The position numbers and the translations under genes are program-made. The notes beneath the pieces are model-generated. The model worked only from the letters and a program-made list of their open reading frames with translations. It was not told the origin of the DNA and did no database searches. From Bacilli bacterium (GTDB lineage Bacteria; Bacillota_I; Bacilli_A; RF39; UBA660), in assembly GCA_900758495.1 (NCBI GenBank), contig CAAERO010000019.1, positions 14,252 to 78,251 on the forward strand: a DNA stretch of 64,000 nucleotides. Direction: 5' to 3'. Shown one piece after another: positions 1,734 to 24,184 of the stretch. Each line of letters starts with the position of its first letter. Positions within the stretch are counted from its first letter, which is position 1.

Positions 1734-1808
1734 TGGTAGCCCCACTAGGATTCGAACCCAGACTAAGAGGGTTAGAGCCTCCTGTGCTAGCCATTACACC
1801 ATAGGGCA
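1734..1808 (-). tRNA. Amber suppressor tRNA, anticodon CUA (reads UAG); probably Gln-type
   Basis: The reverse complement folds as a cloverleaf: acceptor (U)GCCCUA / UGGGGC(U), U8 G9, D arm GUGU-AAUGGCUA-GCAC, anticodon arm GGAGG-CUCUAAC-CCUCU, variable UAGU, T arm CUGGG-UUCGAAU-CCUAG, A73, encoded CCA (tgg 1734-1736). The anticodon is the complement of + strand tag at 1773-1775. Confidence 0.85.
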
Positions 1809-3092: not shown

Positions 3093-3911
3093 TTAGGATT
3101 TACATATTCTGGATCCATTTGATACTTCTCTATCATTCTTTGATAAATCTCCATTTCCTGTTCCAGACTTTCCTTTGTTATATTCATCTTCATATCTCCT
3201 TATCAGATTATTAACTAATATATTTAGCGTATGAAAATCTGTACTACCTGTAAAATGTACACAAGGTATTACATCTTTATCGATATTAATTCCAAATATA
3301 TCTTTCTGTATATCTCCTAATGAGCTAATGTCATAATATACATCGTGATTTCCGTCATTATTTCTGCATATATACTCAGCTTTGATATTATAGCGGTTGT
3401 AAGTTCTATTGCTTAACTCATGCCCTAGATTATCAAGCTTTTCTCTTATCTCAGATTCTTCCTTTTTTTGACACTCCTCAATATTTTCTCTATTTTTATG
3501 TTCCTTTTCAGAAATCATACTATCTATATCGAGTATATCTAATAAGCTATTGCAATCATCAATCTTCTTAGATATGCGGTTATTGAGTTTGTCAATTAAG
3601 GATTCCTGAGTTTCTCCGTGCTTACTGCAGTAGAGCATTGCTATGGCATTCCAAGCTACTTGTGCAAGATGTCTACAACCGGTTTCGTTGTCCATCTCTT
3701 CTCCCTTTTCGAATAACACAAGATGTCTGAATAATGCGGCTTTATATCTAGAGTAACCATCTTTAAGTAACTGCCAAGTATTGACTCCGTACTTCTTTGA
3801 TCCTTCAGTATATACTTTAACGATATCTTCTAATTCTTCTAGAGGCAATAAATCCCATCTGAGTTTATTATCTTTAAAGTCATTCTTTATCCCCTGTTTC
3901 ATATTTATCAA
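3093..3911 (-). CDS. Protein with an N-terminal DUF5664-like (dATP/dGTP diphosphohydrolase N-terminal type) domain; C-terminal half unassigned
   Basis: RWDLLPLEELEDIVKVYTEGSKKYGVNTW ... FRHLVLFEKGEEMDNETGCRHLAQVAWNAIAML matches my recollection of this phage domain. The family assignment was not verified. Confidence 0.5.
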   Translation of the reverse strand: MINMKQGIKNDFKDNKLRWDLLPLEELEDIVKVYTEGSKKYGVNTWQLLKDGYSRYKAALFRHLVLFEKGEEMDNETGCRHLAQVAWNAIAMLYCSKHGETQESLIDKLNNRISKKIDDCNSLLDILDIDSMISEKEHKNRENIEECQKKEESEIREKLDNLGHELSNRTYNRYNIKAEYICRNNDGNHDVYYDISSLGDIQKDIFGINIDKDVIPCVHFTGSTDFHTLNILVNNLIRRYEDEYNKGKSGTGNGDLSKNDREVSNGSRICKS

Positions 3912-5797: not shown

Positions 5798-6214
5798 TTA
5801 TTCATTAATAATATCTTTAATCTTGTTTAATACTTTAGTAAGGTTATAATAAACTGTATCAGCTTCTACTTTAACACAAGTAGGTACTTCTTGATTATTA
5901 TAAGCCTCTTCGAGTTTCTTGTGATCTGTTTCGTACTGTTCTAAGAGACTATCAATCGTATTGGCAATCGTATCAAGCTTGTCTGACATCTCTTCCAACA
6001 AAGTATCGTCACAGCTACATTCGTCCTCATCATCGAGTACAATGAGATAGCCCTCATCAACATATTCATCACAAGTATCTTTATCCATAAACAAAGCACG
6101 TTCACTCGTTTCGTCTTTAAAATAGAACTCAAACATTTCTGTTTCATCATTCCAAGTAAGGATATTACCTTTCTTACCACAAGCAAACTCTTTTACTACT
6201 TTATACTGTACCAT
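5798..6214 (-). CDS. Hypothetical acidic protein (138 aa)
   Basis: Intact ORF. The overlapping same-strand track ORF 5941..6186 is in another frame and is rejected. Confidence 0.65.
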   Translation of the reverse strand: MVQYKVVKEFACGKKGNILTWNDETEMFEFYFKDETSERALFMDKDTCDEYVDEGYLIVLDDEDECSCDDTLLEEMSDKLDTIANTIDSLLEQYETDHKKLEEAYNNQEVPTCVKVEADTVYYNLTKVLNKIKDIINE

Positions 6215-6323
6215 AATAATTATTATTTTTAATTGTCTTAATAGTTGTTACAATTACATAAACGTGAAGTGTTAAAAAGGTAACTATATTTTAACATTTG
6301 TTAACTATTTAACTTAATGCAAT

Positions 6324-6351
6324 AAAAAAGGCTAGATCCGCAGACCTAGCC
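6324..6351 (-). terminator. Intrinsic terminator after the GroES-like gene
   Basis: GGCTAG (6330-6335) pairs with CTAGCC (6346-6351). An A6 run at 6324-6329 on the + strand gives a U-run after the hairpin on the minus strand. Confidence 0.65.
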
Positions 6352-6380
6352 CCACAACAACTATTAATACGCATTAATAC

Positions 6381-9902: not shown

Positions 9903-10663
9903 CTTCTTTAATGCGACCAACGTCAGTGACAAGTCTGATAAATGCAGAGTCAAAGAAGCTATTACAGTTTATTATGCACAAATAGATTATAATAGTAAAA
10001 CCACGTGGTAAGGGCACAGTTAGGTTCGCTGTGAGTGCGCCCTTTGTAGCAACTAACCAAAGCAAGTATAGATGGGAATAAGCTATTACCTCGATAGGCT
10101 TAATGAGGTGCTTGACAGTCTGACACTAACTGAACAATAAGTGTCAAATAACTCTCTACTGAATCACAGGCTCGAGACGTTTAAGAGTTAGCGTGTGTAG
10201 GTAGAGAGTTCTTTAAGGTGAGAATCCTTGACAAGCATGTGGGGCTTATATCTATCTATAAACAAGGAGACGGACTAATTTTTATTAGTACAAGGAGTCG
10301 GTTATAGTAGTATTAGTGCAGACTTTAAAATCATGCAGTATAACAATCTTCCATATACTAATGCAATAGTGAACTTCTGAATCATGTTATACTTATTAGT
10401 CCTAAGCGTAGGATAGTCCTCAACTTATTATGTTCCGTTAGCTTAATATGGATTTGTGGAATACTAAGAGTAGTATTGCTAGTATGTTTATATGTGAATA
10501 TAGGTATACTAGTTGCACTCATAAGGCAGCCTTCACGTGGCGAGTGTGTTAAGTAATAGGTTAAATAAATCTTCCAGTTTGTACCTATGAAAACTAATGC
10601 CTTATAAAATTAGTCAAAGTCTTTTATATCAATATATATTGTTTAATTAAAATTATCAAAATT

Positions 10664-10930
10664 ATGAGACAAAGTGTAATTAATTACGTGAAAGAGAATG
10701 GTATTAAGTTAGCTGCTAATTCAAAGGCATTAAAACTTATCAACAACGGAGCATCCGAGGCAGAAGTAGCTGTAGCTTTGCAGACTACAAAGGCATATAA
10801 AGAGGATTCTACTCTTCGTCAGATGTGCCAAGAAGTTGTTGCTGAGGCTGGCAAGGAACAAGCTGACAGTGCTAAAAAACCAGAGAATCATTCAAATTCT
10901 GCTCGTAGAGGAGAAAATGAACGATACTAG
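10664..10930 (+). CDS. Hypothetical protein (88 aa); ends in TAG
   Basis: Intact ORF with the conserved TTATCAAAATT-ATG start context. A strong terminator follows. Confidence 0.65.
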   Translation: MRQSVINYVKENGIKLAANSKALKLINNGASEAEVAVALQTTKAYKEDSTLRQMCQEVVAEAGKEQADSAKKPENHSNSARRGENERY

Positions 10931-10954
10931 TTTCATTCAATACAGATTTTGATT

Positions 10955-10989
10955 AAAGAGTTAGGTTCTTAGGAATCTAACTCTTTTTT
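10955..10989 (+). terminator. Intrinsic terminator
   Basis: AAAGAGTTAG (10955-10964) pairs perfectly with CTAACTCTTT (10977-10986), followed by a T-run. Confidence 0.8.
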
Positions 10990-11007
10990 AATTAAATTAG
11001 AAAGATT

Positions 11008-12303
11008 ATGACTAAGTGGCAAGAATCGTGCATTACAGCACTCGCTTCATCCCCAATGGCATGGGAAGCCTTTAAAATGAAGCAAAGAAACAGAAAGTTA
11101 TTATGGCAATATATAAATCGTATATGGCCATATAAACTGATTGCAGGAACGAAAGTAAATAAAAATAAGAAAGATCTTCTCGCTATTGCTAGAATACTAA
11201 AAAACCTATCATCTACAATTCAATATTATGTTCCAGGTATAGAAAGGGCAAGTTGTATAGAAGACGTTGATGTTCGATTTGATAAAGTAGACTGGCTTTG
11301 TATTAAAGATATTATATCGAAAGAAGATAGCGAATATAAAAGAATAGTTAGAGGAGCATATTGTGGCAATCACTTATTTTCTTTAGATTACACTTACCTA
11401 GATGATGATAATTTTGAAAGTTGGTGTATGTCTGGAGGCAATCATAATCTAATAGATGTTCTTAATACTTGTTTTGGGGAGTGTTATCTCCATGATCATT
11501 GTTATATAACTGGTATAAGATTTCATTCTAACATTACAAATACATATAATATGTTATTGCAAATGCAAGATGAAATAACTTATATTCTGTGTAAGATAGT
11601 TAAAACTATTGAAGGTGTTAAAGGTAATACTTTAAAGTACACCTTAAAAGACAGAAGAAAATATAATTCTTTAAATGTCGGTATTGAAATAGAACATGAT
11701 GCGGAATATCCTACACCAAATAAGATTCAAAGAGCTATCTTACTTAATAACTGTGTATCATATGATTCAGGTTATGATGGCAACTCTTCTAATAGGCTAC
11801 GAGAAAATCGTATTCGGTTAAATGGTATTAAAGGCTTAAAAGGCTTGTATATACTATTAACTAATATGAAAGAAAATTGTGCGATTGCCAAAAATAGTAG
11901 CGTACATATGCATATTGATTGTAAATATGACAACTTCTTTATGGATCGTAGTAAATTCTATAAAGGAAGTGAAAAAGATTGCATATATGGTATGGTAGAT
12001 GTTCTAGCTATTAGAATGAGTAAATATCAATCTAATACGGATAGTGCTTTGCAAATTATATCGGATATTGTAGAATATGAAGTTACTAGATATCATTTTA
12101 ATACTAGTGATTATACTAGATATGATAATGAATTTAACACTATAGAATATCGATTCGCGAAAATAAATTTTAACTATTCTGATTATGTTATACAAATTTT
12201 GACATTTATTCATATAACGGAGTGCATTAAGCATGATGCTCCGTTTAACATTCAGTATTTAGAGTTACTATATAAAGTAATGAAGAATCTGAATAATAAT
12301 TAG
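11008..12303 (+). CDS. Hypothetical protein (431 aa); ends in TAG
   Basis: Long intact ORF. Possible metal-site motifs (GIEIEHDAEYP, SSVHMHIDC) but no family assigned. Confidence 0.75.
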   Translation: MTKWQESCITALASSPMAWEAFKMKQRNRKLLWQYINRIWPYKLIAGTKVNKNKKDLLAIARILKNLSSTIQYYVPGIERASCIEDVDVRFDKVDWLCIKDIISKEDSEYKRIVRGAYCGNHLFSLDYTYLDDDNFESWCMSGGNHNLIDVLNTCFGECYLHDHCYITGIRFHSNITNTYNMLLQMQDEITYILCKIVKTIEGVKGNTLKYTLKDRRKYNSLNVGIEIEHDAEYPTPNKIQRAILLNNCVSYDSGYDGNSSNRLRENRIRLNGIKGLKGLYILLTNMKENCAIAKNSSVHMHIDCKYDNFFMDRSKFYKGSEKDCIYGMVDVLAIRMSKYQSNTDSALQIISDIVEYEVTRYHFNTSDYTRYDNEFNTIEYRFAKINFNYSDYVIQILTFIHITECIKHDAPFNIQYLELLYKVMKNLNNN

Positions 12304-12690
12304 GTTTCCGATCTAACACTGAAATTGCTAGCATTAAGGTGTTATACAGGAATTAGCGTAGACTAATCTTCTAGAGAATAGTCATTTATCGCTCGGTTTA
12401 TCTGTTCGTTCCAGTAATTGCCAAACGAAAAACAGATGGGCACACATGAAGAGGTAGCTGTCGAATTGTGTGTGTAGTTGTTTTGTTTATATCAATATTT
12501 AGCCTTCGTATTATATTAGAGGAATACATGTCACTAAATAAAGATATAAATAAGGCAAACCTCTGCCCTATAGTTTAATTCTGTAATCAATACAGAGTGA
12601 GTATAAAACAACAGTATGATGCTTACTGTTATCTAGGTTCTCAGTCCTAGTAGGGTACTATCTAAGAATTTTAACTAAAATCAATTTAGT

Positions 12691-12900
12691 ATGAAAGAAA
12701 AACCAAAGAAATCAGTTCGAATGTGGGTTGCAAGAGAAAAAAATGGAGCGTTATTTTTGTTCTGTGAAAAACCAAAAAAGAGTAAATCTTACTGGATAAA
12801 TTCAAATACGTTCAATAGTCTAGTACTCCCAAAAGAAGCTTTTCCTAGTGTAAAATGGGAAGACAATGAACCTACAAGAGTAATTATTAGATTAGCGTAG
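12691..12900 (+). CDS. Hypothetical protein (69 aa); ends in TAG
   Basis: Intact ORF abutting the next ATG (TAG-T-ATG). Confidence 0.55.
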   Translation: MKEKPKKSVRMWVAREKNGALFLFCEKPKKSKSYWINSNTFNSLVLPKEAFPSVKWEDNEPTRVIIRLA

Positions 12901-12901
12901 T

Positions 12902-13204
12902 ATGATTATAAGAAGAAACACTTCAGAAAATATACTTGCCACTATTAGTGAATCACTAGTAATAATAGTTGTTATAATTATAGTAGCAGTATCATTAGTC
13001 AAATATTCTAATAATAAAGACTATTACAACTATATAGAACTTAAAGCACAGTATAAGAACTATATTGTGACTAATAAGTATATACGGAACTCAGACACTT
13101 ATGTGTTAGAACTCATGAACCCTTTTAGTAAAAAGACTAAAGAGGTATATGTTAGAGATTATCTATATTATAATACTTATTTTGTAGGAGATACTATAAA
13201 ATGA
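12902..13204 (+). CDS. Membrane-anchored hypothetical protein (100 aa)
   Basis: Hydrophobic segment LVIIVVIIIVAVSLV. ATGA overlap with the next gene. Confidence 0.6.
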   Translation: MIIRRNTSENILATISESLVIIVVIIIVAVSLVKYSNNKDYYNYIELKAQYKNYIVTNKYIRNSDTYVLELMNPFSKKTKEVYVRDYLYYNTYFVGDTIK

Positions 13205-13536
13205 CAAGAAGTAAAAGCCAAAAGTATATATATCTATGTAGGTATAATAAGAGTAAGCCTTATCGTGTGATAATACGTCACAATGGTGAAAATATCCAAG
13301 TGGGAACATTTGCTACATTTCCTGAAGCTATTGAAGCTCGTAATAATAAATTACAGGAATTAGAAGCAAGAGTACCTATTAGTATTCTTACTAGAGTAAG
13401 TATTAAAGCAGCTATTAGAGAAGTTATAGAAGATTTAGAACAAGTAGCTAAGTCAATAAAAAATATAGACAGAGTTAGTTTTAATATAATATCTAATCAA
13501 ATTAAACAGTTATCCAAAGTGTTAAACAAATACTAA
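13201..13536 (+). CDS. AP2-domain DNA-binding protein
   Basis: KPYRVIIRHNGENIQVGTFATFPEAIEARNNKLQEL fits the AP2/ERF-type three-strand-plus-helix pattern common in phages. Confidence 0.55.
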   Translation: MTRSKSQKYIYLCRYNKSKPYRVIIRHNGENIQVGTFATFPEAIEARNNKLQELEARVPISILTRVSIKAAIREVIEDLEQVAKSIKNIDRVSFNIISNQIKQLSKVLNKY

Positions 13537-13544
13537 TCAAAATT

Positions 13545-13943
13545 ATGTTTGAACAAGTAAAAGATTACAAAAGTGCTTGTGCTGTATTAGGTAGGAAACC
13601 TATTGATAAGCGCAGGAAGTTAGATGAGCATGTTATATTATACATCATGCTGAGTACTATCACTGAAGCAATTAACTTTATTGCTAATGGAAACAAACCG
13701 TGGATACCAGTCTACCAACAAAACAAACCAATCAAAACATGGTACAGTTGGTGGTGTATTGATTGGAACAAGATTAAAGATGGTTCCGGTGCGGGTTTCT
13801 TCTTTCTGGGTTCTTACAATGGCCTTGGTGCTGCGTATGCTTATGTCGGTACTCATTTGAGGTTCATTAACAGAGAAGCAGCAGAATATGCAGCAAAAAC
13901 TTTTCAGCCATTGTATATGAAACATATCTTTGGAATCGATTAA
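13545..13943 (+). CDS. Hypothetical protein (132 aa)
   Basis: Intact ORF with the TCAAAATT-ATG start context. Confidence 0.65.
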   Translation: MFEQVKDYKSACAVLGRKPIDKRRKLDEHVILYIMLSTITEAINFIANGNKPWIPVYQQNKPIKTWYSWWCIDWNKIKDGSGAGFFFLGSYNGLGAAYAYVGTHLRFINREAAEYAAKTFQPLYMKHIFGID

Positions 13944-13973
13944 TTTATTATTAACTAAAAACATTTATCAAAA

Positions 13974-14441
13974 ATGGAAAGCCAAAACAAAAACGGGCTT
14001 ATTTATGCCCTAATTTTCAGTATTATCGCTTTCATTGTTAGTATAGGTACTGCTATTAGCGTACGTACTAATATTATGGACGATATTAAAGATGCTATTA
14101 ACCCTGATAAGGTTGAAAGTGTACAAACTACGGATACAACAACGTATACCGAACCGGTAACTATCGATGACATTCTCCAGTTCCGAAAGGATATTAAAGA
14201 ACAATCTCGATATGATTCAATATTTATGAATATGCCGGATGTAGCCCTTATTGCAATACTTATGAAAGGAGGCACTGAAATGTCGAATAGTGACATAGCC
14301 AAGGAGTATTTGCAAAACAGGAAGGACTACGATAATGTAGAATTTGGTGCACAAATTAATGATACTTATAAACAAAATAAGATTACACCAGATTCTATAC
14401 CGAGGAAATCTACGGCTGATATACCTATTAAAGATGAATAA
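13974..14441 (+). CDS. Membrane-anchored hypothetical protein (155 aa)
   Basis: N-terminal hydrophobic helix LIYALIFSIIAFIVSIGTAISV. Confidence 0.65.
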   Translation: MESQNKNGLIYALIFSIIAFIVSIGTAISVRTNIMDDIKDAINPDKVESVQTTDTTTYTEPVTIDDILQFRKDIKEQSRYDSIFMNMPDVALIAILMKGGTEMSNSDIAKEYLQNRKDYDNVEFGAQINDTYKQNKITPDSIPRKSTADIPIKDE

Positions 14442-14870
14442 AAATGTCCTTTATATTTAGTTATTGATAATTATTGCACTTGTTCGTGAGAATAGGTGCA
14501 ATTGCCTAAATGAATGTCTTCAGAAGATGACAAACCTGTGGGGCGTAAGTAATAAAGAGTCTGAAAGATTGCAGATAAGAGTATGCACTTATTGGCAATA
14601 TGCATACCAGAATAATTTATTATGATCGTGCGGACGTTAAAATCAGGTACTCCAATAAGATTTAGTTTTGCAGCTATTTCTGCTTATGAGTTAAAACTAA
14701 GCGAGAGCTTAAAATTGAAATTGAGACTATTCTAGTTTCGGTAAATAAGTAAAAAGCGTTTTACAAGTCTCTTATTAACAAGTGTAAGGTGGATATTAAC
14801 TGTTCAACAAAAAAATCCAGAATATCCTGGTCGTCGTCAATTGAGTTATTAACTTTTAAATATTTAAAAG

Positions 14871-15134
14871 ATGAGTATTTTAAAAAAAATTTATTTTAAG
14901 TGGAAAGCATTTAAAATGCGTTCTCGGGCTAAATCAGAGGCTCATAAAAAGCTCTTTAGTAGTCCACTAGCCTATACAAGGGCTATAAATGAAATTGATT
15001 GTCTTATTAATGGACATCAATGGAGTAGTGAATTCAATCCTAAAACAGAGCTTAATAAGCGGTTTAAGGATAGAGTATACTGTAAACATTGTGGGGTTCG
15101 TTATCATCAGCATACTTATAAAGAGGCAAATTAA
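14871..15134 (+). CDS. Hypothetical protein (87 aa)
   Basis: Intact ORF; first of a tight three-gene cluster. Confidence 0.6.
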   Translation: MSILKKIYFKWKAFKMRSRAKSEAHKKLFSSPLAYTRAINEIDCLINGHQWSSEFNPKTELNKRFKDRVYCKHCGVRYHQHTYKEAN

Positions 15135-15136
15135 CT

Positions 15137-15436
15137 ATGGTACGAATTTATAAAAATGATATTGCTTATATTGTTTGTGAAGTAAAGATATTCAAGAATG
15201 ATATATCTATTGGTACTACAAATAGTATAATCAATGAGTCCTACATAAAACAAATTATCAAAGATCCTAGTGATAATAGTACTATAATATCGTTAGAAGG
15301 TAGTTTTAGTATTATTGTAAATGAGAACTATGATGATTTTATCATTGAGTTCTTCCGTCCGGATCCTATTGCAATTAACAAACAACTAGCAGAAGGAAAA
15401 CAAAACAAGATAGGTTTTCAACATATTAATCAATAA
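15137..15436 (+). CDS. Hypothetical protein (99 aa)
   Basis: Intact ORF, 2 nt after the previous stop. Confidence 0.6.
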   Translation: MVRIYKNDIAYIVCEVKIFKNDISIGTTNSIINESYIKQIIKDPSDNSTIISLEGSFSIIVNENYDDFIIEFFRPDPIAINKQLAEGKQNKIGFQHINQ

Positions 15437-15440
15437 TATT

Positions 15441-15836
15441 ATGAGAATAGTAATTTTTGGTATTAAAGATGATTCACTCACTAGTGAAGAGATTAAAAAA
15501 TCACTCTCTAAAGCATTTCCTAATGAATGTGGAAATATTGTAGCTATAGAAACAAGCTATATTGCTGGAAGAGAAAACTGTGAAAGTCAAGATAGTGCTT
15601 TTATCAGGGCTTGTAAACAACTTTGTGTTGTATGTGGTGATCCTACTGAGGAAGAAGCATTTAGAGGAGCATTTTGGAAAGCGTTTTTTGTTGATAAGGC
15701 TATTGAGCCTATTATCCTTAAAACAATTGCTACTGGTCCACGATCAACGAGAGAGTATAATATACTGAAAAGTATGAATGCGGAATTCCTTCCGAAGCTT
15801 GCTATTTCAGCATTAACAACCCTTAACGAAATGTAA
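15441..15836 (+). CDS. Hypothetical protein (131 aa)
   Basis: Intact ORF. The internal alternative-frame track ORF 15562..15768 is rejected. Confidence 0.65.
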   Translation: MRIVIFGIKDDSLTSEEIKKSLSKAFPNECGNIVAIETSYIAGRENCESQDSAFIRACKQLCVVCGDPTEEEAFRGAFWKAFFVDKAIEPIILKTIATGPRSTREYNILKSMNAEFLPKLAISALTTLNEM

Positions 15837-15838
15837 TT

Positions 15839-15964
15839 ATGGGAAAGACGTTTAAAGACAGCTCTTATGCAATTAAGTCTGTAAACAAGAGAACAAAAAC
15901 AACACGTAGAGCTAAATTACAGCCTTATGATCGTAAATCTTTTAAATCTATAAGCTGTGAGTAG
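15839..15964 (+). CDS. Possible small basic protein (41 aa); ends in TAG
   Basis: ATG at 15839: MGKTFKDSSYAIKSVNKRTKTTRRAKLQPYDRKSFKSISCE. Confidence 0.3.
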   Translation: MGKTFKDSSYAIKSVNKRTKTTRRAKLQPYDRKSFKSISCE

Positions 15965-16154
15965 ATTAATCTGCAACCGGAAATTAAAAGCAACTACTCT
16001 TAATTTAATTAAGAATGATTGCCCGTTACAATGTAATAAACAACATTGTGATGTATGTCAGTTTAGAGATGATAACTCTAAAAAGACACAAACTAAAATA
16101 GTTACTGTCAATGCTCCTTCGCCAGAGGCATACGGCAAAGAATTATATTATTAA
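15957..16154 (+). CDS. Possible Cys-rich small protein (65 aa, GTG start)
   Basis: Track ORF with CPLQCNKQHCDVCQF. No ATG start, and it overlaps the previous candidate. Confidence 0.3.
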   Translation: MSRLICNRKLKATTLNLIKNDCPLQCNKQHCDVCQFRDDNSKKTQTKIVTVNAPSPEAYGKELYY

Positions 16155-16527
16155 CCCTAAACAAGTTAGTATGGTGCAGTCAACCCAAGCTACTATTTAC
16201 CAACCAAAACCCTAATGGAAGCTTAGAAATAAGCAAGAGTACAATGGACTATACAACGGTCAACCAGGTATTACTATCTAGGTCAGGTGAAGGAAAGGGG
16301 TTGCCTATGAATAAGGAATACGAATAAATAGGATAGTAGCATTAAGGGTATATAGCTTTGATCGGCTATATACCCACAATAAAAGTTAACTATAAAAATA
16401 GCAGGAGTATTGTATAACATAACGAAGGCCTACCTGTAGAGAGTGCTGTGAAATAGATTATTCTATGAAGTATGGCTTAATTCTGCACGCGAGTTATACT
16501 TTAGTTAACTTTAAAGAAATTGACTGT

Positions 16528-16578
16528 TAGGTCTATTGAATCGTCGTTTGGACACGGGTTCGACTCCCGTATGCTCCA
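16528..16578 (+). ncRNA. ssrA: tmRNA-like acceptor piece (3' half of the tRNA-like domain), located upstream of its 5' partner
   Basis: GGUCUAUU-GAAUC-GUCGUU, then UGGAC, T arm ACGGG-UUCGACU-CCCGU, 3' acceptor strand AUGCUCC and A73. This parallels the E. coli ssrA 3' end ...GGAC-GCGGG-UUCAACU-CCCGC-CAGCUCC-A. Confidence 0.65.
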
Positions 16579-16671
16579 CTATGTTCGTTCGACTCGAACC
16601 AGTGGCAGCTCCTGTGATGGGTAACTCTTCCTCATGTGTGAAATAACACAAATGGCAACTGAGCTGCAATC

Positions 16672-16813
16672 GGGGCATTATGGTTTTGACAGCGACATAG
16701 AGGAGATAGAATAGGTCAATAAGCAGATAACTGGCAATACAAGTTATGTAACAGATTACACTCGCTTAGTAGCGTGATAATCTGAACGGCTCGCCATTGT
16801 CGTAAAAGGCTGG
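16672..16813 (+). ncRNA. ssrA: tmRNA-like coding piece: 5' acceptor strand, P2 strand and tag reading frame
   Basis: GGGGCAUUAUGGUUUUGACAGCGAC parallels E. coli GGGGCUGAUUCUGGAUUCGACGGG. GGGGCAU pairs with AUGCUCC (16571-16577) and gives a G3:U70 pair. AGCGAC and AAUAGGUC pair with GUCGUU and GGUCUAUU of the upstream piece. Frame 16733-16774 encodes GNTSYVTDYTRLVA, followed by TGA TAA (16775-16780). The 3' boundary is uncertain. Confidence 0.65.
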
Positions 16814-16891
16814 GGTAAGTAGTTTCATAAGGCTTAGAAACGCTAACACTGATAAAGTTAGAAGAGGGAGGTTCGAATCCTCTCCTTACCA
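16814..16891 (+). tRNA. Non-canonical tRNA-like gene, possibly tRNA-Ile(GAU)
   Basis: Acceptor GGUAAG(U)/(C)CUUACC + A73, D arm UUUC-AUAAGGCUUA-GAAA, T arm GGAGG-UUCGAAU-CCUCU. The anticodon arm is CUAAC/GUUAG enclosing 9 nt (ACUGAUAAA). That can also be read as a canonical CUGAUAA loop (anticodon GAU, 16851-16853) closed by an A.A mismatch on a 6-level stem. A8 replaces U8, and 7:66 is a U.C mismatch. Confidence 0.5.
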
Positions 16892-18599: not shown

Positions 18600-19148
18600 A
18601 TGAAAGAAGAAGAAAAGCTTCTTGTAGAGCAAGCTAGAGAAGGTTCCGAAAAAGCTTTTAATACACTTTATAATAACTATTATAAAACAGTCTGGTATAC
18701 TGCTAACAATGTAGTACATAATTCAGATGCAGCAGATGATATAACATCTATGGTATTTACTAAAGTATATTTAAAGTTACAATCTTATACTAATCATATT
18801 TCATTTGAAATGTGGTTAAAGACAATTACAGTTAATACTGCAATTGACTATATAAGACGGAATAAAAAAGAGCAGTTAAATAACTATATTGATGATGAGG
18901 AGTCAAAGATTCAATTAAGCGGATTAGAACACAGTCCAGAAGATGATATGATATTTCAACAGAATATTAATATTGTTATGGAATGTATTCCTCGTCTTAA
19001 GAAAAAGTATAGAGATTTAATATATGCTCGACTTGATGGGAAATCCTATCAGCAAATTTCACAAGAGCTTGCCATACCAGAAGCAACAGTTAAAACCTGT
19101 TTAAATAAGGCAAGACAAAGACTAAAACAATTATTTAACCAATATTAA
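18600..19148 (+). CDS. ECF-type (group 4) sigma-70 family RNA polymerase sigma factor
   Basis: Region 2: AFNTLYNNYYKTVWYTANNVVHNSDAADDITSMVFTKVYLKL and SFEMWLKTITVNTAIDYIRRNKK. Region 4: LKKKYRDLIYARLDGKSYQQISQELAIPEATVKTCLNKARQRLKQL. Confidence 0.85.
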   Translation: MKEEEKLLVEQAREGSEKAFNTLYNNYYKTVWYTANNVVHNSDAADDITSMVFTKVYLKLQSYTNHISFEMWLKTITVNTAIDYIRRNKKEQLNNYIDDEESKIQLSGLEHSPEDDMIFQQNINIVMECIPRLKKKYRDLIYARLDGKSYQQISQELAIPEATVKTCLNKARQRLKQLFNQY

Positions 19149-19612: not shown

Positions 19613-20950
19613 ATGGCAAAAGTTAGTAAAAAAGCTGAGAAATTAGCTAAGAAAAATAAGGCAAAGGTTGAGGAACCGTCAAAGACTCAAGATACTGTAG
19701 CTACTACAGTAGAAGCGCCGAAACCTGATAAAAAGCCTGCGGAAGTAGTGGAAAACAAAGAAACCAAAGATAAACCGCAGGTTAAGGACGAAAAGACCAA
19801 GACCGAAGGGGAAGTTATTGTTCCTGAAGTAGTAAAACCGGAAAGTGTTGCTATCACAACATCTACCTCATTGGGTGGAATGCTTGGTAGTGATGGCTCT
19901 AAGGACCGCATTGACAAGAATCATGCGATTGAGCTTATGGGCATTATTCGGAACGAGTATTTGACTAACCCAGAAACTCCTGAAAAGGTAAAAAAAGCAA
20001 TGAAACGTCAGTTTGACGTTATGACATCTGTTGCTTTAGTACAGTATTTCACTCAGCTTGAAGGCGACTTCCAGACTATGGGAGTACGTATTAATGCCGA
20101 AATGCGTGAACAAGCAGAACGCGTTCTTGGTGAATACCTTGGCATTAAGGTGAAGTATATGCAGGCAAATGATAATTCTCGTCAGTTAGTACTTGAGTTC
20201 AAGGAAGTGCCTGAGGAAGTGAAGGAAAACGCTAGAAAGGATGCAGCTGCAGCTAAGGAAGAAATTCCTGAACCAGATCCTAATATGCCAGCTGCAGATA
20301 AGTTGAAAGCTCTCCGTACTATTTTCTCACAGAAAGAAGGTATCGGAAAGAACTTCCTTCAAGGTATTGAATGGGGACGTAAGGCATTCTCATTCAGTAA
20401 AGAAGAAAAGAAGGCCGTTGTGCTTGCAAATCTCATTAAGAGTGGAGCAGATGCAACACTGCTTACCTGCATAAAAGGTATGGTAGGAGGCAAGTTGAAT
20501 ACTGAGCATAGCATTCTTGGTGCACATGCCTTGTTGAAGGGCTGGTGTCCGAGTGTTAGTGATGCAGAAATTGCAGAACTTATTCAGGTAATCGTTTCAA
20601 TCAATTCTGAAAAGAAATTGAAGGAATGGAACGAGAGAGCCGGTGACAATCTCAAAACAACCTTAGAGAAAGAACTCAGTGCCGTTACTCTCAATATTCT
20701 TACTGCAAACGCAGATAAGGCTATTGATGCTATCCTGAAAGGAAAAGATGATGAAGTAACTGTTATGAATGCTGATCAGAACGGCTTTGTAACTATTCAT
20801 CCATCTGCTATTTACAAGACACTTGTTTCTACATATGGCGATTCTCCAAGTATCCTCAAGGATAAAGTCGCAGAACTTGTCAAATATTATGCGAAACCTA
20901 TCGCAAGGTTTGCAGATTATGTAGACAAAAGTGCCTATTCCGACAAATAA
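19613..20950 (+). CDS. Hypothetical protein (445 aa) with a Lys/Glu/Pro-rich N-terminal region of about 90 aa
   Basis: Long intact ORF, visibly GC-richer than its neighbours, with the TTATCAAA-ATG start context. Confidence 0.75.
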   Translation: MAKVSKKAEKLAKKNKAKVEEPSKTQDTVATTVEAPKPDKKPAEVVENKETKDKPQVKDEKTKTEGEVIVPEVVKPESVAITTSTSLGGMLGSDGSKDRIDKNHAIELMGIIRNEYLTNPETPEKVKKAMKRQFDVMTSVALVQYFTQLEGDFQTMGVRINAEMREQAERVLGEYLGIKVKYMQANDNSRQLVLEFKEVPEEVKENARKDAAAAKEEIPEPDPNMPAADKLKALRTIFSQKEGIGKNFLQGIEWGRKAFSFSKEEKKAVVLANLIKSGADATLLTCIKGMVGGKLNTEHSILGAHALLKGWCPSVSDAEIAELIQVIVSINSEKKLKEWNERAGDNLKTTLEKELSAVTLNILTANADKAIDAILKGKDDEVTVMNADQNGFVTIHPSAIYKTLVSTYGDSPSILKDKVAELVKYYAKPIARFADYVDKSAYSDK

Positions 20951-20955
20951 TCAAT

Positions 20956-21336
20956 ATGAAACGGATTAATTTGTGGATCACACTATTCGTAGTGTGTCTT
21001 GGAGGATTTATTGGATTTGATCCAAATTCTCCGTCTCAAACTTTAGATGCAAGTCAGACTATGATTCGTTGGGTAGACGTACCTAAAACACCAGTAGACG
21101 TACTTGGTTTGAATTCTAAGTCTATCAATATCAATCTTAAGGATGAGACTGTATCTGTTGACGGTGACGTCAATAATACTTCTGTGACAATTACAAGGGA
21201 CGTTGAAACACTCCCGGAGTTTAAAACCAAGGTAATTGAAAAGGTAATTTATTTACCTGAAGACATTGCCTATAGAACTAAGTTTTTTAACAGGTTAATG
21301 CCTATTAATAAAACTTTACCAGTTAAAAACTGGTAA
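20956..21336 (+). CDS. Secreted or membrane-anchored hypothetical protein (126 aa)
   Basis: N-terminal signal-like segment MKRINLWITLFVVCLGGFIGF. Confidence 0.65.
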   Translation: MKRINLWITLFVVCLGGFIGFDPNSPSQTLDASQTMIRWVDVPKTPVDVLGLNSKSININLKDETVSVDGDVNNTSVTITRDVETLPEFKTKVIEKVIYLPEDIAYRTKFFNRLMPINKTLPVKNW

Positions 21337-23297
21337 TCTGCCGAAGATAAACGCAGACCGCTAATAGAGATGCACAAGCGGTATATAAGAGCTATAAGTG
21401 TAAAAATTCATTACTTGAGCCTGACTAAGCCGTGTGATGTGAGCAATACAGGATACTGAAATGTATAAGTAATAGCAAACACTATTCTATTTATACTATA
21501 GTATGATAACTTGTTGTGTTATAAAATTGTTCTATAACTGAAGAAGCAACAAGAAAATGGGAGAGCGTGCGTAACCCGTAAGTGAGAACCGACTGGTGAC
21601 TAAAAGACGCAGATGTGGAAGGAGCAGCTATCGCATCTAAACAAGGCAAAGGGGTATCGTTCACCTCTATACATATCCGTTTTAGCTATTTCAAAAGCAG
21701 AATCACGAAGGGATGTGAACACGTGCTGTATGTTGTCATTTAAATCTGAATCGACTAGCATTCTAGGGTAGTCTCCAAAACTCCCCTGTGCAGGGCGGTA
21801 ACCAATCCGTTGGCCAAAGAATACTAACCTAGTGTTTTACATATATTTAAAATCTTCACTCGTATCGAAGCGCATGATTCAATTGGGAATGGACATTATT
21901 TGTCTAAATATATGTATATAAAGGGGTAAATTATATAATAATGAGCAGAAATTGAGACAAGACATGGCTGAGTAGCAATGATCCATATAGAACTTCATTT
22001 GTATTGAAGCTATATGACTGATTAACTGGATTAGGTGCAAAACCTATACGCAATACAGTGAACGTAAGAGTTAGCTGTTTGGGAGAAATCCCTATGGAAA
22101 GTAAATTGCGTGTCTTACAGCTTGAGATATTTCATATATAGTTGCAATTACTATACTGTTTATGACAAATAAGCAGAATGAAGTTAAGGTTATTATATAA
22201 TAAAGTGACTTGTCAGTAATGTCACTATAAAATCTAACGTGCTTTGCACTGGAGTATAAACTGACTAGCGCCTGAAGTCCGCAATAAGACTATTGGTTGA
22301 TAGATATAGGATTAGTATAAATATATCTATTTCGAAAGAAAAGGGAGTGGGCCAGGACCACTATTAAAACTTGGAAAGTTGAAGTAAGGTTACTTTAGTA
22401 CTAAGGTTTGCTATAAATAATTTGGTAAGAGCTATGCACTCCAGCATAGAGCAGGATCTTACAAAGCATCCTAGAGGCCGACACGAAGCAGAGTGGAAGT
22501 AGTCTGTGTATTGCCTTAATAAGCAGCTTGCATATTAAAGAGAATATGAAGAAGGTAAGACTTATTAATGAGTGCCTACGCTGAATCGAACAGCTATAAC
22601 AAATAAGGAGAGTGTCAATATGTTCAACTTAAAAACAATAGGGAAGTTCAATGGTAGTAAGTTTGACAAGCTTACAAGCCACCCCGCTATCGAAGAACCT
22701 TGCTACATGAAATTTCGTAAAGTAATATGCGCAACATATTACCTAAGAAGATCGCTGAAACGATGCTTTAGTACCTCTCATTAGGGTATGTCGTTGAATG
22801 GTTGGAAATACCATGAGGTGAAGTAGTAACCCGAGATTTGTCGCAATGTCGGAAGTGAATTTGTCCGGAAGTGGGTGTCTTGAAAAATTAGACAGCTTTT
22901 GTAACAGTGTTTTAGTAACGTTTCTCAACAGAAACGACCCTCATTCGCTAGGTCCTATTTAGGATAAGAATGTTGTAATAGCTTATATGCCTGTAGACAT
23001 ACCAGTTGTCGATGATAGGCCCTGTATATTATACTAGTACAATACTTATGCTAGATTATATGATATATGGTACGGCGTTTTCGTATTGAAAGTTCAGCTT
23101 AACGTAAAAAAGGTCTGAATGAATAAGCAAGAGTTGATAGACTTTTTGTAAACAAATAATTCTATCTATAAACATACAGAGTATTTTTATAAATTGACAT
23201 ATTTTAATCGTTTAAGTGAAAGTAGATAGCAGAAGAACAGTTGACTCATACGTCTTATGAGTAAAGTCCTACGGGGAATACTGAGTATGAAGAATCA

Positions 23298-23437
23298 AGT
23301 AAATTACAGATTTTATCAGACATTAACAGATTTACAAGTAAACTTCAGAATATGCAATAGCATTACGATCTAGTAAGTGAGTTCTACTATACTTATACAC
23401 ATTAACAGTAAATTACAGATTTTATCAGACATTAACA
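23298..23437. repeat. Two identical 31-nt direct repeats 109 nt apart
   Basis: AGTAAATTACAGATTTTATCAGACATTAACA at 23298-23328 and 23407-23437. The core ACAGATTTTATC recurs at about 34750-34761. Confidence 0.85.
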
Positions 23438-23626
23438 ATTCGTCGTATTACTGAATACATTATTGAGATTAATTAACCTCTTTCAAAGCTTTATTAAAGC
23501 GGCTCTAAGAGACTGAGCAGGTTAGCAGAATAAGAGTAATACGCTAAATTTAAAAATTAGTATTAACAAAAAAATGATTGTATCTCGCTAAGAAATCAAT
23601 CTTAAAATCAAGTAGGAGATATTAAA

Positions 23627-24184
23627 ATGGAAAAAGCAACTATTAACGGTGCTATGATTGCTCCGTATCGGGCAGAGTTAGAAACTTGGAATCTTATTGG
23701 TAAGAAGATTCTGACAGTAAAAGCAGAACCGGCTGATTTGGAATATAATGACAAAGTTCGGGCAAATGAACTTCGTCTTGTTCGGCCGATTATGAAGTAT
23801 GTAATCGAAGAAATTGACATTACGGGTAGTCGTATAACTTGTCTTCCTGACGGCTGTACGCCGGTCATTGAATTGAACAATGATCCGTCTTTGCAGTTCA
23901 AAATTGGACCCGCCAAGTTCAATGAAGTAAACAATGAAACTATCGCTCAGGCTATTGAGTTCAATAGTAAACCGACTACAACTGGTCGTGCTCCAATCTT
24001 CTTTACTGATTATCTGAAGTTGACTGAACATGTCAACCGTCTGAACGGCTTCGAGATGGAAAAGGCTGATCAGATTGCAGAAGAGATGTTAAATCTCTCC
24101 AAGATGCTGAAGGAACTTAACAATCTTCAGGCTTCTAACTGTGATCGTTATTATGACGAGCTCGGTACTCCGATTAAAAAATAA
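23627..24184 (+). CDS. Hypothetical protein (185 aa)
   Basis: Intact ORF, GC-richer than average for the window. Confidence 0.7.
   Translation: MEKATINGAMIAPYRAELETWNLIGKKILTVKAEPADLEYNDKVRANELRLVRPIMKYVIEEIDITGSRITCLPDGCTPVIELNNDPSLQFKIGPAKFNEVNNETIAQAIEFNSKPTTTGRAPIFFTDYLKLTEHVNRLNGFEMEKADQIAEEMLNLSKMLKELNNLQASNCDRYYDELGTPIKK

Follow-up and report, generated by a model that had tools for sequence, protein, structure and literature searches.

Large, intricately folded non-coding RNAs (ncRNAs) are rare, and have historically proved to be ribozymes, cores of ribonucleoproteins (RNPs) or, recently, self-assembling cages. The lengths of GOLLD and ROOL are approximately 0.6-0.8 kb, while the packaging RNA (pRNA) of phage phi29 has approximately 170 nt. 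GOLLD and ROOL have been described as large, ornate, phage-associated and tRNA-linked RNAs (PMC5737381), which form RNA-only cages (PMC12286853). Here we report on a non-coding locus at positions 21337-23626 of the forward (+) strand of a 64,000-nucleotide stretch of contig CAAERO010000019.1 (assembly GCA_900758495.1; the whole stretch is referred to as the window), which, on comparative sequence evidence, is a new, family-wide and very large structured ncRNA locus, read from the + strand, and a hallmark of the Suoliviridae ('delta' crAss-like phages). By BLAST against phage records, the window was identified as a crAss-like phage (Crassvirales, Suoliviridae, Uncouvirinae), its closest named genomes being cr114_1 and cr125_1 (Aurodevirus) and cr115_1 (Birpovirus), with approximately 80-85% nucleotide identity.

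GOLLD and ROOL are the nearest analogues in kind to this locus. They are likewise large, intricate ncRNAs of unknown function, often found in phages or prophages near tRNA genes, and the locus does lie in a phage and near a tRNA, a contextual resemblance that does not establish membership. In contrast to both, the locus matches neither covariance model, its conserved core of about 1.7 kb is approximately 2-3 times longer, and it is found in crAss-like phages that infect Bacteroidota instead of in Lactobacillales or rumen organisms. The likeness is one of context and scale, and not of membership. The first-pass annotation of the window had suggested GOLLD/ROOL-like classes and a scan that included HEARO and raiA, but the Rfam 15 scan of the window and of six diverged relatives matched none of them: in the window, nothing was found in the gap at gathering thresholds, and permissive filters (E up to 10) gave four chance-level matches to unrelated families, with 12-20 bits, while in the six relatives there was none in the gap at E up to 1. 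These negatives cover GOLLD, ROOL, OLE, HEARO, raiA, group I/II introns, RNase P, self-cleaving ribozymes and all other Rfam families. Moreover, no self-cleaving ribozyme (hatchet, twister, hammerhead, pistol and other families), looked for as a processing site at the borders, was found within 21200-23750.

Other known systems share single traits with the locus. OLE resembles it in being a long ncRNA of several domains, rich in conserved nucleotides that stay unpaired, and presumably functions as an RNP, but it belongs to the cells of extremophilic Firmicutes and has partner proteins dedicated to it, whereas the locus has no match to its model and no recognisable partner. RAGATH-7, RAGATH-9 and Hatchet are conserved structured RNAs of unknown role in the same genomes and the same co-directional early operon; they are, however, single motifs of 130-210 nt present in Rfam, and the locus, larger by an order of magnitude, has no match to any of them. 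The ribosomal RNAs, RNase P RNA and group II introns have in common with it a conserved helix core, invariant loops and lineage-specific expansion segments, yet they are defined by domain-closing, covarying long-range helices, of which none rises above the null expectation here, and the locus shows no homology to them, does not lie inside a host gene and holds no intron-encoded protein. A group I or II intron was considered and rejected, as no model matched, the flanking open reading frames (ORFs) are separate genes, the downstream one with its own Shine-Dalgarno sequence, and there is no internal ORF. Finally, phi29 pRNA is similarly encoded by a phage and works as a folded structure and not as a message, but it is part of a packaging motor, whereas the locus lies in the early/replication module, is ten times larger and has no packaging link that we could find. 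No description of the locus was found in the literature searched on crAss-like phages, Suoliviridae, ncRNAs and large structured RNAs, which included a comparative genomics study of crAss-like phages from 2021 (PMC7886860) and a review of the Crassvirales from 2023 (PMC10136315).

The locus and its conserved core are delimited as follows:

21337-23626, + strand: whole non-coding locus, 2290 nt, bounded by the stop codon of ORF 20956-21336 and by the ATG that opens ORF 23627-24184
21339-23080, + strand: conserved structured core of approximately 1.74 kb, with the order of motifs constant in all clades

Relatives were collected from IMG/VR via the downstream 185-amino-acid (aa) protein, which yielded 78 complete loci, corresponding to 56 unique sequences and to 16 clusters below 95% identity. 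In all 78, ORFs are absent from the syntenic interval, which is 2043-2289 nt long. The gap measures 1.9-2.3 kb in every Suoliviridae relative examined, covering four subfamilies and samples from human, macaque and rabbit, and named genomes carry it as listed:

cr4_1, cr113_1 and cr53_1 (Loutivirinae): gaps of 2.13-2.15 kb
cr6_1 (Bearivirinae): gap of 2.08 kb
cr118_1 (Uncouvirinae, Besingivirus): gap of 1.92 kb
cr130_1 (from macaque) and cr124_1 (Oafivirinae): gaps of 2.03 and 2.16 kb, respectively

The absence of any plausible ORF from 21337-23626, as first annotated, holds under the standard code, in which the longest ORFs have 70 aa on the + strand and 61 aa on the - strand, and also when TAG, TGA or TAA is reassigned singly, with the longest stop-to-stop frames reaching 97-114 aa. 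In addition, substitutions are spread flatly over the codon positions of the gap (0.44/0.45/0.42), as opposed to the third-position excess of the flanking ORFs (e.g., 0.62/0.45/0.86), and indels in the gap are not multiples of three. A normal protein gene in relatives, which the first-pass annotation had regarded as speaking against an RNA, was looked for, and every relative examined proved to be ORF-free at this place. Small hypothetical coding sequences (CDSs) are annotated by RefSeq inside the homologous region of cr125_1 (KNV58_gp066, at 3163-3324 of locus L001) and, on the opposite strand, of cr113_1 (KNV54_gp20, at 5922-6359 of locus L083); the small CDSs annotated in relatives are probably spurious, since they are not conserved and the region shows the signature of a structured RNA.

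The gap is under stronger constraint at the nucleotide level than its protein-coding neighbours: among six representatives of the closest clade, variable columns amount to 31-50% in 21337-23036, while the flanking ORFs have 54-73%. Variability is far higher, and indels are abundant, over the final 550 nt or so (23080-23626). Aligning related crAss-like genomes, as had been proposed, showed sequence and structure to be conserved across the Suoliviridae relatives. A profile of the closest clade aligned nearly end to end by nhmmer with cr6_1-like (E=2e-84) and L063-like (E=1e-43) loci, and in two co-linear blocks with those of the Loutivirinae, hereafter clade B. Three anchor motifs, GAGAACCG, AGUC-CGCAAUAA-GACU and GGGAAGUUCAAUGG, stand at near-constant offsets in 16/16 clusters, and the middle region near the second anchor can be aligned across clades, with the order of hairpins unchanged. 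Among 146 unique sequences, parts were never lost, reordered or split by genes, and the total length is kept at approximately 1.9-2.3 kb despite many indels. Lineage-specific insertions occur at hairpin tips or between conserved helices, as exemplified by an extra hairpin in the loop of helix 21510/21553, extra hairpins after AACACG and, in some Loutivirinae, a 70-nt insertion after helix 21611/21638. They resemble expansion segments added to a core that stays fixed.

Regarding its wider distribution, a three-motif pattern of the 3' subdomain is matched by at least 120 IMG/VR contigs, most of them of 50-105 kb. A similar pattern gave 21 matches in 185,579 bacterial and archaeal species genomes, five of which were confirmed by a model of the 5' subdomain (R1, described below); two of these five are contigs of approximately 100 kb, one from a rabbit sample, and the rest are short contigs. 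The two long contigs that carry the RNA are L093 (CANRPB010000001.1, 98.7 kb, in a Bacilli metagenome-assembled genome (MAG) from rabbit) and L097 (MSGT01000071.1, 100.1 kb, in a Sphaerochaeta MAG), both probably mis-binned phage genomes. As all five confirmed matches appear to be mis-binned or contaminating phage sequence, the 185,579 genomes scanned give no sign of a cellular homologue.

We then turned to the structure of the RNA. At least 20-30 conserved local stem-loops, together with multi-stem domains of up to approximately 200 nt, were found with covarying stems, and the elements located include the following:

21502-21642, + strand: 5' subdomain (R1)
21510-21516/21547-21553, + strand: R1 helix with an inserted hairpin, 21518-21523/21533-21538
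21557-21561/21575-21579 and 21611-21617/21632-21638, + strand: further R1 helices
21584-21600, + strand: near-invariant single-stranded motif GAGAACCG-AYU-GGYGA
21673-21678/21711-21716, + strand: covarying helix enclosing a variable hairpin with a conserved AUCA loop
21984-21990/22010-22016, + strand: hairpin of 7 bp with 3 compensatory pairs
22081-22092, + strand: GGGA-GAAA-UCCC hairpin with a GNRA tetraloop, replaced by GAGAC-UUA-GUCUC in cr125_1 and cr114_1
22207-22227, + strand: GUGAC/GUCAC hairpin, followed by an invariant UAUAA
22276-22291, + strand: universal hairpin AGUC-CGCAAUAA-GACU, with four stem versions by lineage and a constant loop
22301-22308/22322-22329, + strand: covarying 8-bp hairpin
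22638-22764, + strand: 3' subdomain
22641-22643/22683-22685 and 22652-22655/22678-22681, + strand: helices flanking an 8-nt asymmetric, invariant internal loop, AAGUUCAA (22644-22651)
22641-22654, + strand: anchor motif GGGAAGUUCAAUGG
22723-22730/22736-22743, + strand: hairpin with a CGCAA loop
22754-22759, + strand: CGCUGA motif
23244-23277, + strand: twin hairpins ACUCAUA-CGUCU-UAUGAGU and then CC-UACG-GG
23440-23626, + strand: less conserved tail containing the leader of the downstream gene, with a hairpin GCUUUAUUAAAGC and a Shine-Dalgarno sequence AGGAGA at 23614-23619

Two hairpins that the first-pass annotation had singled out are real and covary in relatives, namely 21984-22016, with the 3 compensatory pairs given above, and 22207-22227, whose stem has the alternative versions GUAAC/GUUAC, UCAG/CUGA and UCAC/GUGA in other lineages. 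The invariant unpaired motifs comprise GAGAACCG..UGG, AAGUUCAA, recurrent CGCAA loops, UCUCCAAA and CGCUGA; the first of them (21584-21591) is identical in 16 cluster representatives, and cr118_1 has GAGUACCG. Conserved unpaired motifs are typical of sites of tertiary contact or protein binding. The twin hairpins are kept in the closest clade (clade A) and in cr6_1-like and L063-like loci, but not in clade B, and possibly represent a 3' end or processing element, while the tail at 23440-23626 probably lies outside the RNA core.

The evidence for a conserved fold comes from covariation. A covariance model of R1, with 143 positions and 30 pairs over window positions 21502-21642, was seeded with the closest clade, cr6_1 and L063 only. 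It found exactly one full-length match per locus, on the + strand and at the syntenic position, including every locus of the unseeded clade B (E from 1e-12 to 1e-4), as well as cr118_1 (3e-11), cr130_1 (7e-7) and cr124_1 (0.013). In 22 distinct sequences, 96.4% of the cells were paired, against 74.0% in column shuffles and 35-46% with slid partners; both sides had changed in 24/30 pairs, against 4-8 in the slid controls, and the covariation score was 0.50, against 0.05-0.11. Within clade B, which took no part in the seed, 156/163 cells were paired, with 71 changed on both sides relative to clade A. When the set was extended to 42 distinct sequences, 92.5% of the cells were paired (66.8% in shuffles and 35-48% in slid controls), and 281 cells were doubly changed (97 in shuffles and 18-47 in slid controls). 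The 3' subdomain at 22638-22764, aligned by plain MAFFT in 16 representatives, had 96.4% of its cells paired, against 79.9%, and 11/16 pairs were compensatory.

A scan independent of folding energies, which counted local stacks of 4 bp or more in which every pair was compatible and two or more were compensatory, and took parallel stacks as the null, gave 19 antiparallel against 3 parallel stacks in the closest-clade set, 17 against 4 in the Loutivirinae and, under stricter criteria, 7 against 0 in 23 Loutivirinae-like sequences. Compensatory changes thus stand well above controls in independent lineages, as is generally expected of a conserved structured RNA. The pairs of the R1 alignment include 42 G·U against 1 A·C, and allowing A·C instead of G·U lowered the number of supported stacks from 19 to 5 in the closest clade and from 17 to 12 in the Loutivirinae; an alifold run without G·U pairs had given 16 G·U against 6 A·C, an underpowered comparison superseded by the 42:1 count of the covariance-model alignment and by the stack scan. 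Moreover, the GC skew of the gap (+0.12 to +0.14) is that of the surrounding + strand genes. As G·U is tolerated and A·C is not, and as the skew is that of + strand genes, the RNA is read from the + strand. Altogether, nucleotide conservation and family-wide covariation strongly support the leading candidate of the first-pass annotation, one or more large structured RNAs.

Composition turned out to be less distinctive than first described. The gap had been called a GC-enriched island, and there is a mild excess (35.1%, the 89th percentile of equal-sized windows, and 37.2% in the core, against 32.7% in the whole window), but the 5 kb upstream have 35.7% and adjacent genes up to 43%. The variable 3' part holds a number of lineage-specific features:

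22967-23191, + strand: recombination-like patch of 225 nt
23288-23351, + strand: 64-nt insertion with repeat copy 1, found in the window and close kin only and missing in four more distant relatives aligned
23298-23328 and 23407-23437: the two copies of an exact 31-nt direct repeat

The 31-nt repeats had already been pointed out near the 3' end; they are exact, and shuffles of the window gave no match of this kind. The second copy (23407-23437) is the ancestral one. The repeat motif occurs nowhere else in the window, and its interpretation as a phage-wide promoter motif was dropped on account of these only two occurrences. A second insertion, at 23042-23080, is likewise missing in the four more distant relatives aligned. 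The patch at 22967-23191 has 94% identity to cr4_1 (Loutivirinae), as opposed to approximately 50% elsewhere, and is not found in the close relative L007; judging from these identities, it is probably a recombination tract between distant phages. Three further candidates were discarded: internal tandem modules with a period of approximately 400 nt, indicated by weak repeat hints, were ruled out by nhmmer of each tile against the rest and by self-BLAST; a long inverted repeat (21465-21480/22406-22421) showed no covariation when alignment A1 was read; and the words UAUGG and CCUAAG, read as an 11-nt tetraloop receptor, are not conserved and have unpaired flanks.

The gap sits within a long co-directional (+) early/replication operon, extending from approximately 8 kb to 40 kb. 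Small ncRNAs are followed by an extracytoplasmic function (ECF)-type sigma factor, three proteins of unknown function and the gap, and, downstream of it, by four more proteins of unknown function, a tRNA-Met, a DNA polymerase, a helicase, a Sak4-like protein and a primase. The features of the operon that were located are:

9957-10146, + strand: RAGATH-7 (Rfam 15)
10209-10336, + strand: first hatchet ribozyme, 63 nt downstream of RAGATH-7
14516-14648, + strand: second hatchet ribozyme
16176-16343, + strand: RAGATH-9
16487-16868, + strand: permuted transfer-messenger RNA (tmRNA)
18600-19148, + strand: ECF-type sigma factor (Sigma70_r2 and r4_2), 2.2 kb upstream of the gap
19613-20950, + strand: 445-aa protein, a conserved neighbour upstream of the gap
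26631: tRNA-Met, the nearest tRNA to the gap

Window positions 9957-16868 (+) thus form a second ncRNA-rich stretch in the same operon, in which the first hatchet could free the 3' end of RAGATH-7 by cleavage. A tRNA lies 1.2-3 kb downstream of the gap in every relative checked. As for the sigma factor, all the taxonomy-checked crAss-like records among its homologues belong to the Suoliviridae, and hence it co-occurs with the RNA. Homologues of the 445-aa protein were found in crAss-like contigs only. Its N-terminal 100 residues or so are basic, lysine-rich and predicted to be disordered, and its C-terminal domain is helical; the AlphaFold2 model, of medium confidence (predicted local distance difference test score, pLDDT, of 63), had no significant Foldseek match, the best having E=0.2. 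On these predictions, the protein may be an RNA-binding partner. Window positions 1734-1808 (-) encode a tRNA with anticodon CUA, labelled 'Pyl' by ARAGORN. It is an amber suppressor and points to late genes being TAG-recoded, a trait known from reports on delta-group crAss-like phages. Parts of 40-64 kb have few - strand ORFs of 100 aa or longer, which may likewise reflect TAG recoding.

It is moderately probable, by analogy with known large RNAs, that the locus produces a single trans-acting RNA or RNP scaffold of approximately 1.7-2.0 kb. The RNA would be co-transcribed with the early/replication operon, after the sigma factor and before the tRNA and DNA polymerase, which is the simplest reading given that no conserved host-type promoter of its own was found. 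It would then act in trans, as one compact RNA or RNP scaffold, with the invariant loops making tertiary contacts or binding partners, which may be phage proteins or host translation or tRNA-related factors; such an action would resemble the one suspected for the phage-associated, tRNA-linked GOLLD and ROOL. A bolder proposition, less likely than not, is that the entire core of approximately 1.7-2.0 kb forms a single RNA molecule with one compact tertiary fold and serves as an RNA machine during infection.

A number of results weigh against this picture. Single-sequence folding is unremarkable, with minimum free energy (MFE) z-scores of 300-nt tiles ranging from -2.5 to +1.4, most of them between -0.7 and +1.4 and around 0, while the flanking genes score lower, and a census of GNRA/UNCG tetraloops by strand was at chance level; the earlier impression of a region full of hairpins beyond chance was therefore not upheld, and the case for structure rests on covariation. 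Alignments based on covariance models tend towards the modelled structure. Helices spanning more than 150 nt did not exceed the null, with 29 antiparallel and 32 parallel stacks, and the long-range helices proposed by RNAalifold were poorly supported in both clades. Among the well-supported closures, the largest extend over approximately 165-200 nt, the best being one of approximately 165 nt in clade B, with 8 bp and 0/184 cells unpaired, and alignments of sequences across clades carry too much noise for long-range pairing to be assessed globally. With long-range stacks at the null level, one global fold is conjectural. In addition, scans of the gap for sigma-70-type promoters, the Bacteroides TAnnTTTG element and + strand intrinsic terminators returned none that is conserved, so that the transcription-control hub once proposed for this region finds no support in a conserved host-type promoter or terminator. 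The conserved neighbours of 445, 126, 185 and 171 aa gave nothing in PHROGs, Pfam or PDB sequences and so no functional clue; they are candidate partners of the RNA and no more. The scaffold or RNP mechanism is itself an analogy and not a result.

The main rival of the single RNA or RNP scaffold, though itself rather unlikely, is a fixed head-to-tail array of smaller structured RNAs, of 100-300 nt each and with separate roles, for which the cluster of RAGATH-7, Hatchet, RAGATH-9 and tmRNA at 9.9-16.9 kb provides the model. It would account for helix support being limited to the local and medium range, it finds a parallel in the several small ncRNAs demonstrably present in the same operon, and the 225-nt patch was probably swapped between distant phages as if it were modular. 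However, no loss or reordering of the modules, nor any ORF between them, is seen in 146 unique sequences, with the length held at approximately 1.9-2.3 kb, no internal ribozyme, promoter or terminator was found, and insertions look like expansion segments attached to a fixed core.

It is improbable that the locus is a cis-acting leader of the genes from 23627 onward, or a trailer of those upstream, controlling translation, stability or termination. Its position within a co-directional operon, where no separate promoter for it was detected, would agree with such a role, as would the fact that the last 190 nt hold the leader and Shine-Dalgarno sequence of the next gene, but approximately 550 nt of poorly conserved, indel-rich sequence separate the core from the start codon, a 1.7-kb core with about 30 helices and invariant loops is far larger than any known cis-regulator, and no riboswitch or leader family in Rfam 15 matched.

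It is very improbable that the locus is an element acting at the DNA level through its hairpins, for instance an origin of replication or a site for packaging or partition. It is non-coding and conserved, the DNA polymerase gene follows a few kb downstream in the same replication module, and an origin had been suggested in the first-pass annotation. Nevertheless, the GC skew is uniformly positive from 8 to 40 kb and changes sign only at approximately 8 kb and 40 kb, with no inflection at the gap, there are no iterons or repeated boxes besides the lineage-specific 31-nt duplication, and the core is more GC-rich and not more AT-rich. Moreover, the G·U to A·C ratio of 42:1, together with compensatory pairing on one strand, is the signature of an RNA over 1.7 kb. 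Both skew switch points coincide with switches in gene orientation, and they are better candidates for replication landmarks than the gap.

Finally, a disrupted, intron-split or unusually recoded protein gene is the least probable explanation: TAG recoding and many introns have been reported in delta-group phages (PMC7886860) and the window encodes an amber-suppressor tRNA (1734-1808), but no single stop reassignment opens a long frame, substitutions lack a period of three and indels are not multiples of three, no group I/II intron model matched even at E up to 10, and no relative has a gene here.

For the biology of these phages, the locus accounts for a 2-kb 'hole' that has been left blank, or filled with apparently spurious small CDSs, in current annotations of crAss-like genomes, and it does so in a phage family that ranks among the most abundant in the human gut. 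RNA-seq, chemical probing and cryo-EM have in it a well-defined object of study. If the single compact fold were true, no larger structured RNA, ribosomal RNAs aside, would be known from bacteria or their viruses, and it might be, e.g., a catalytic RNA, a self-assembling cage like those of GOLLD and ROOL, or a decoy of host translation or defence factors. Together with the tmRNA, suppressor tRNA, hatchet ribozymes and RAGATH RNAs, the locus is further evidence of a heavy investment by crAss-like phages in functions at the RNA level.

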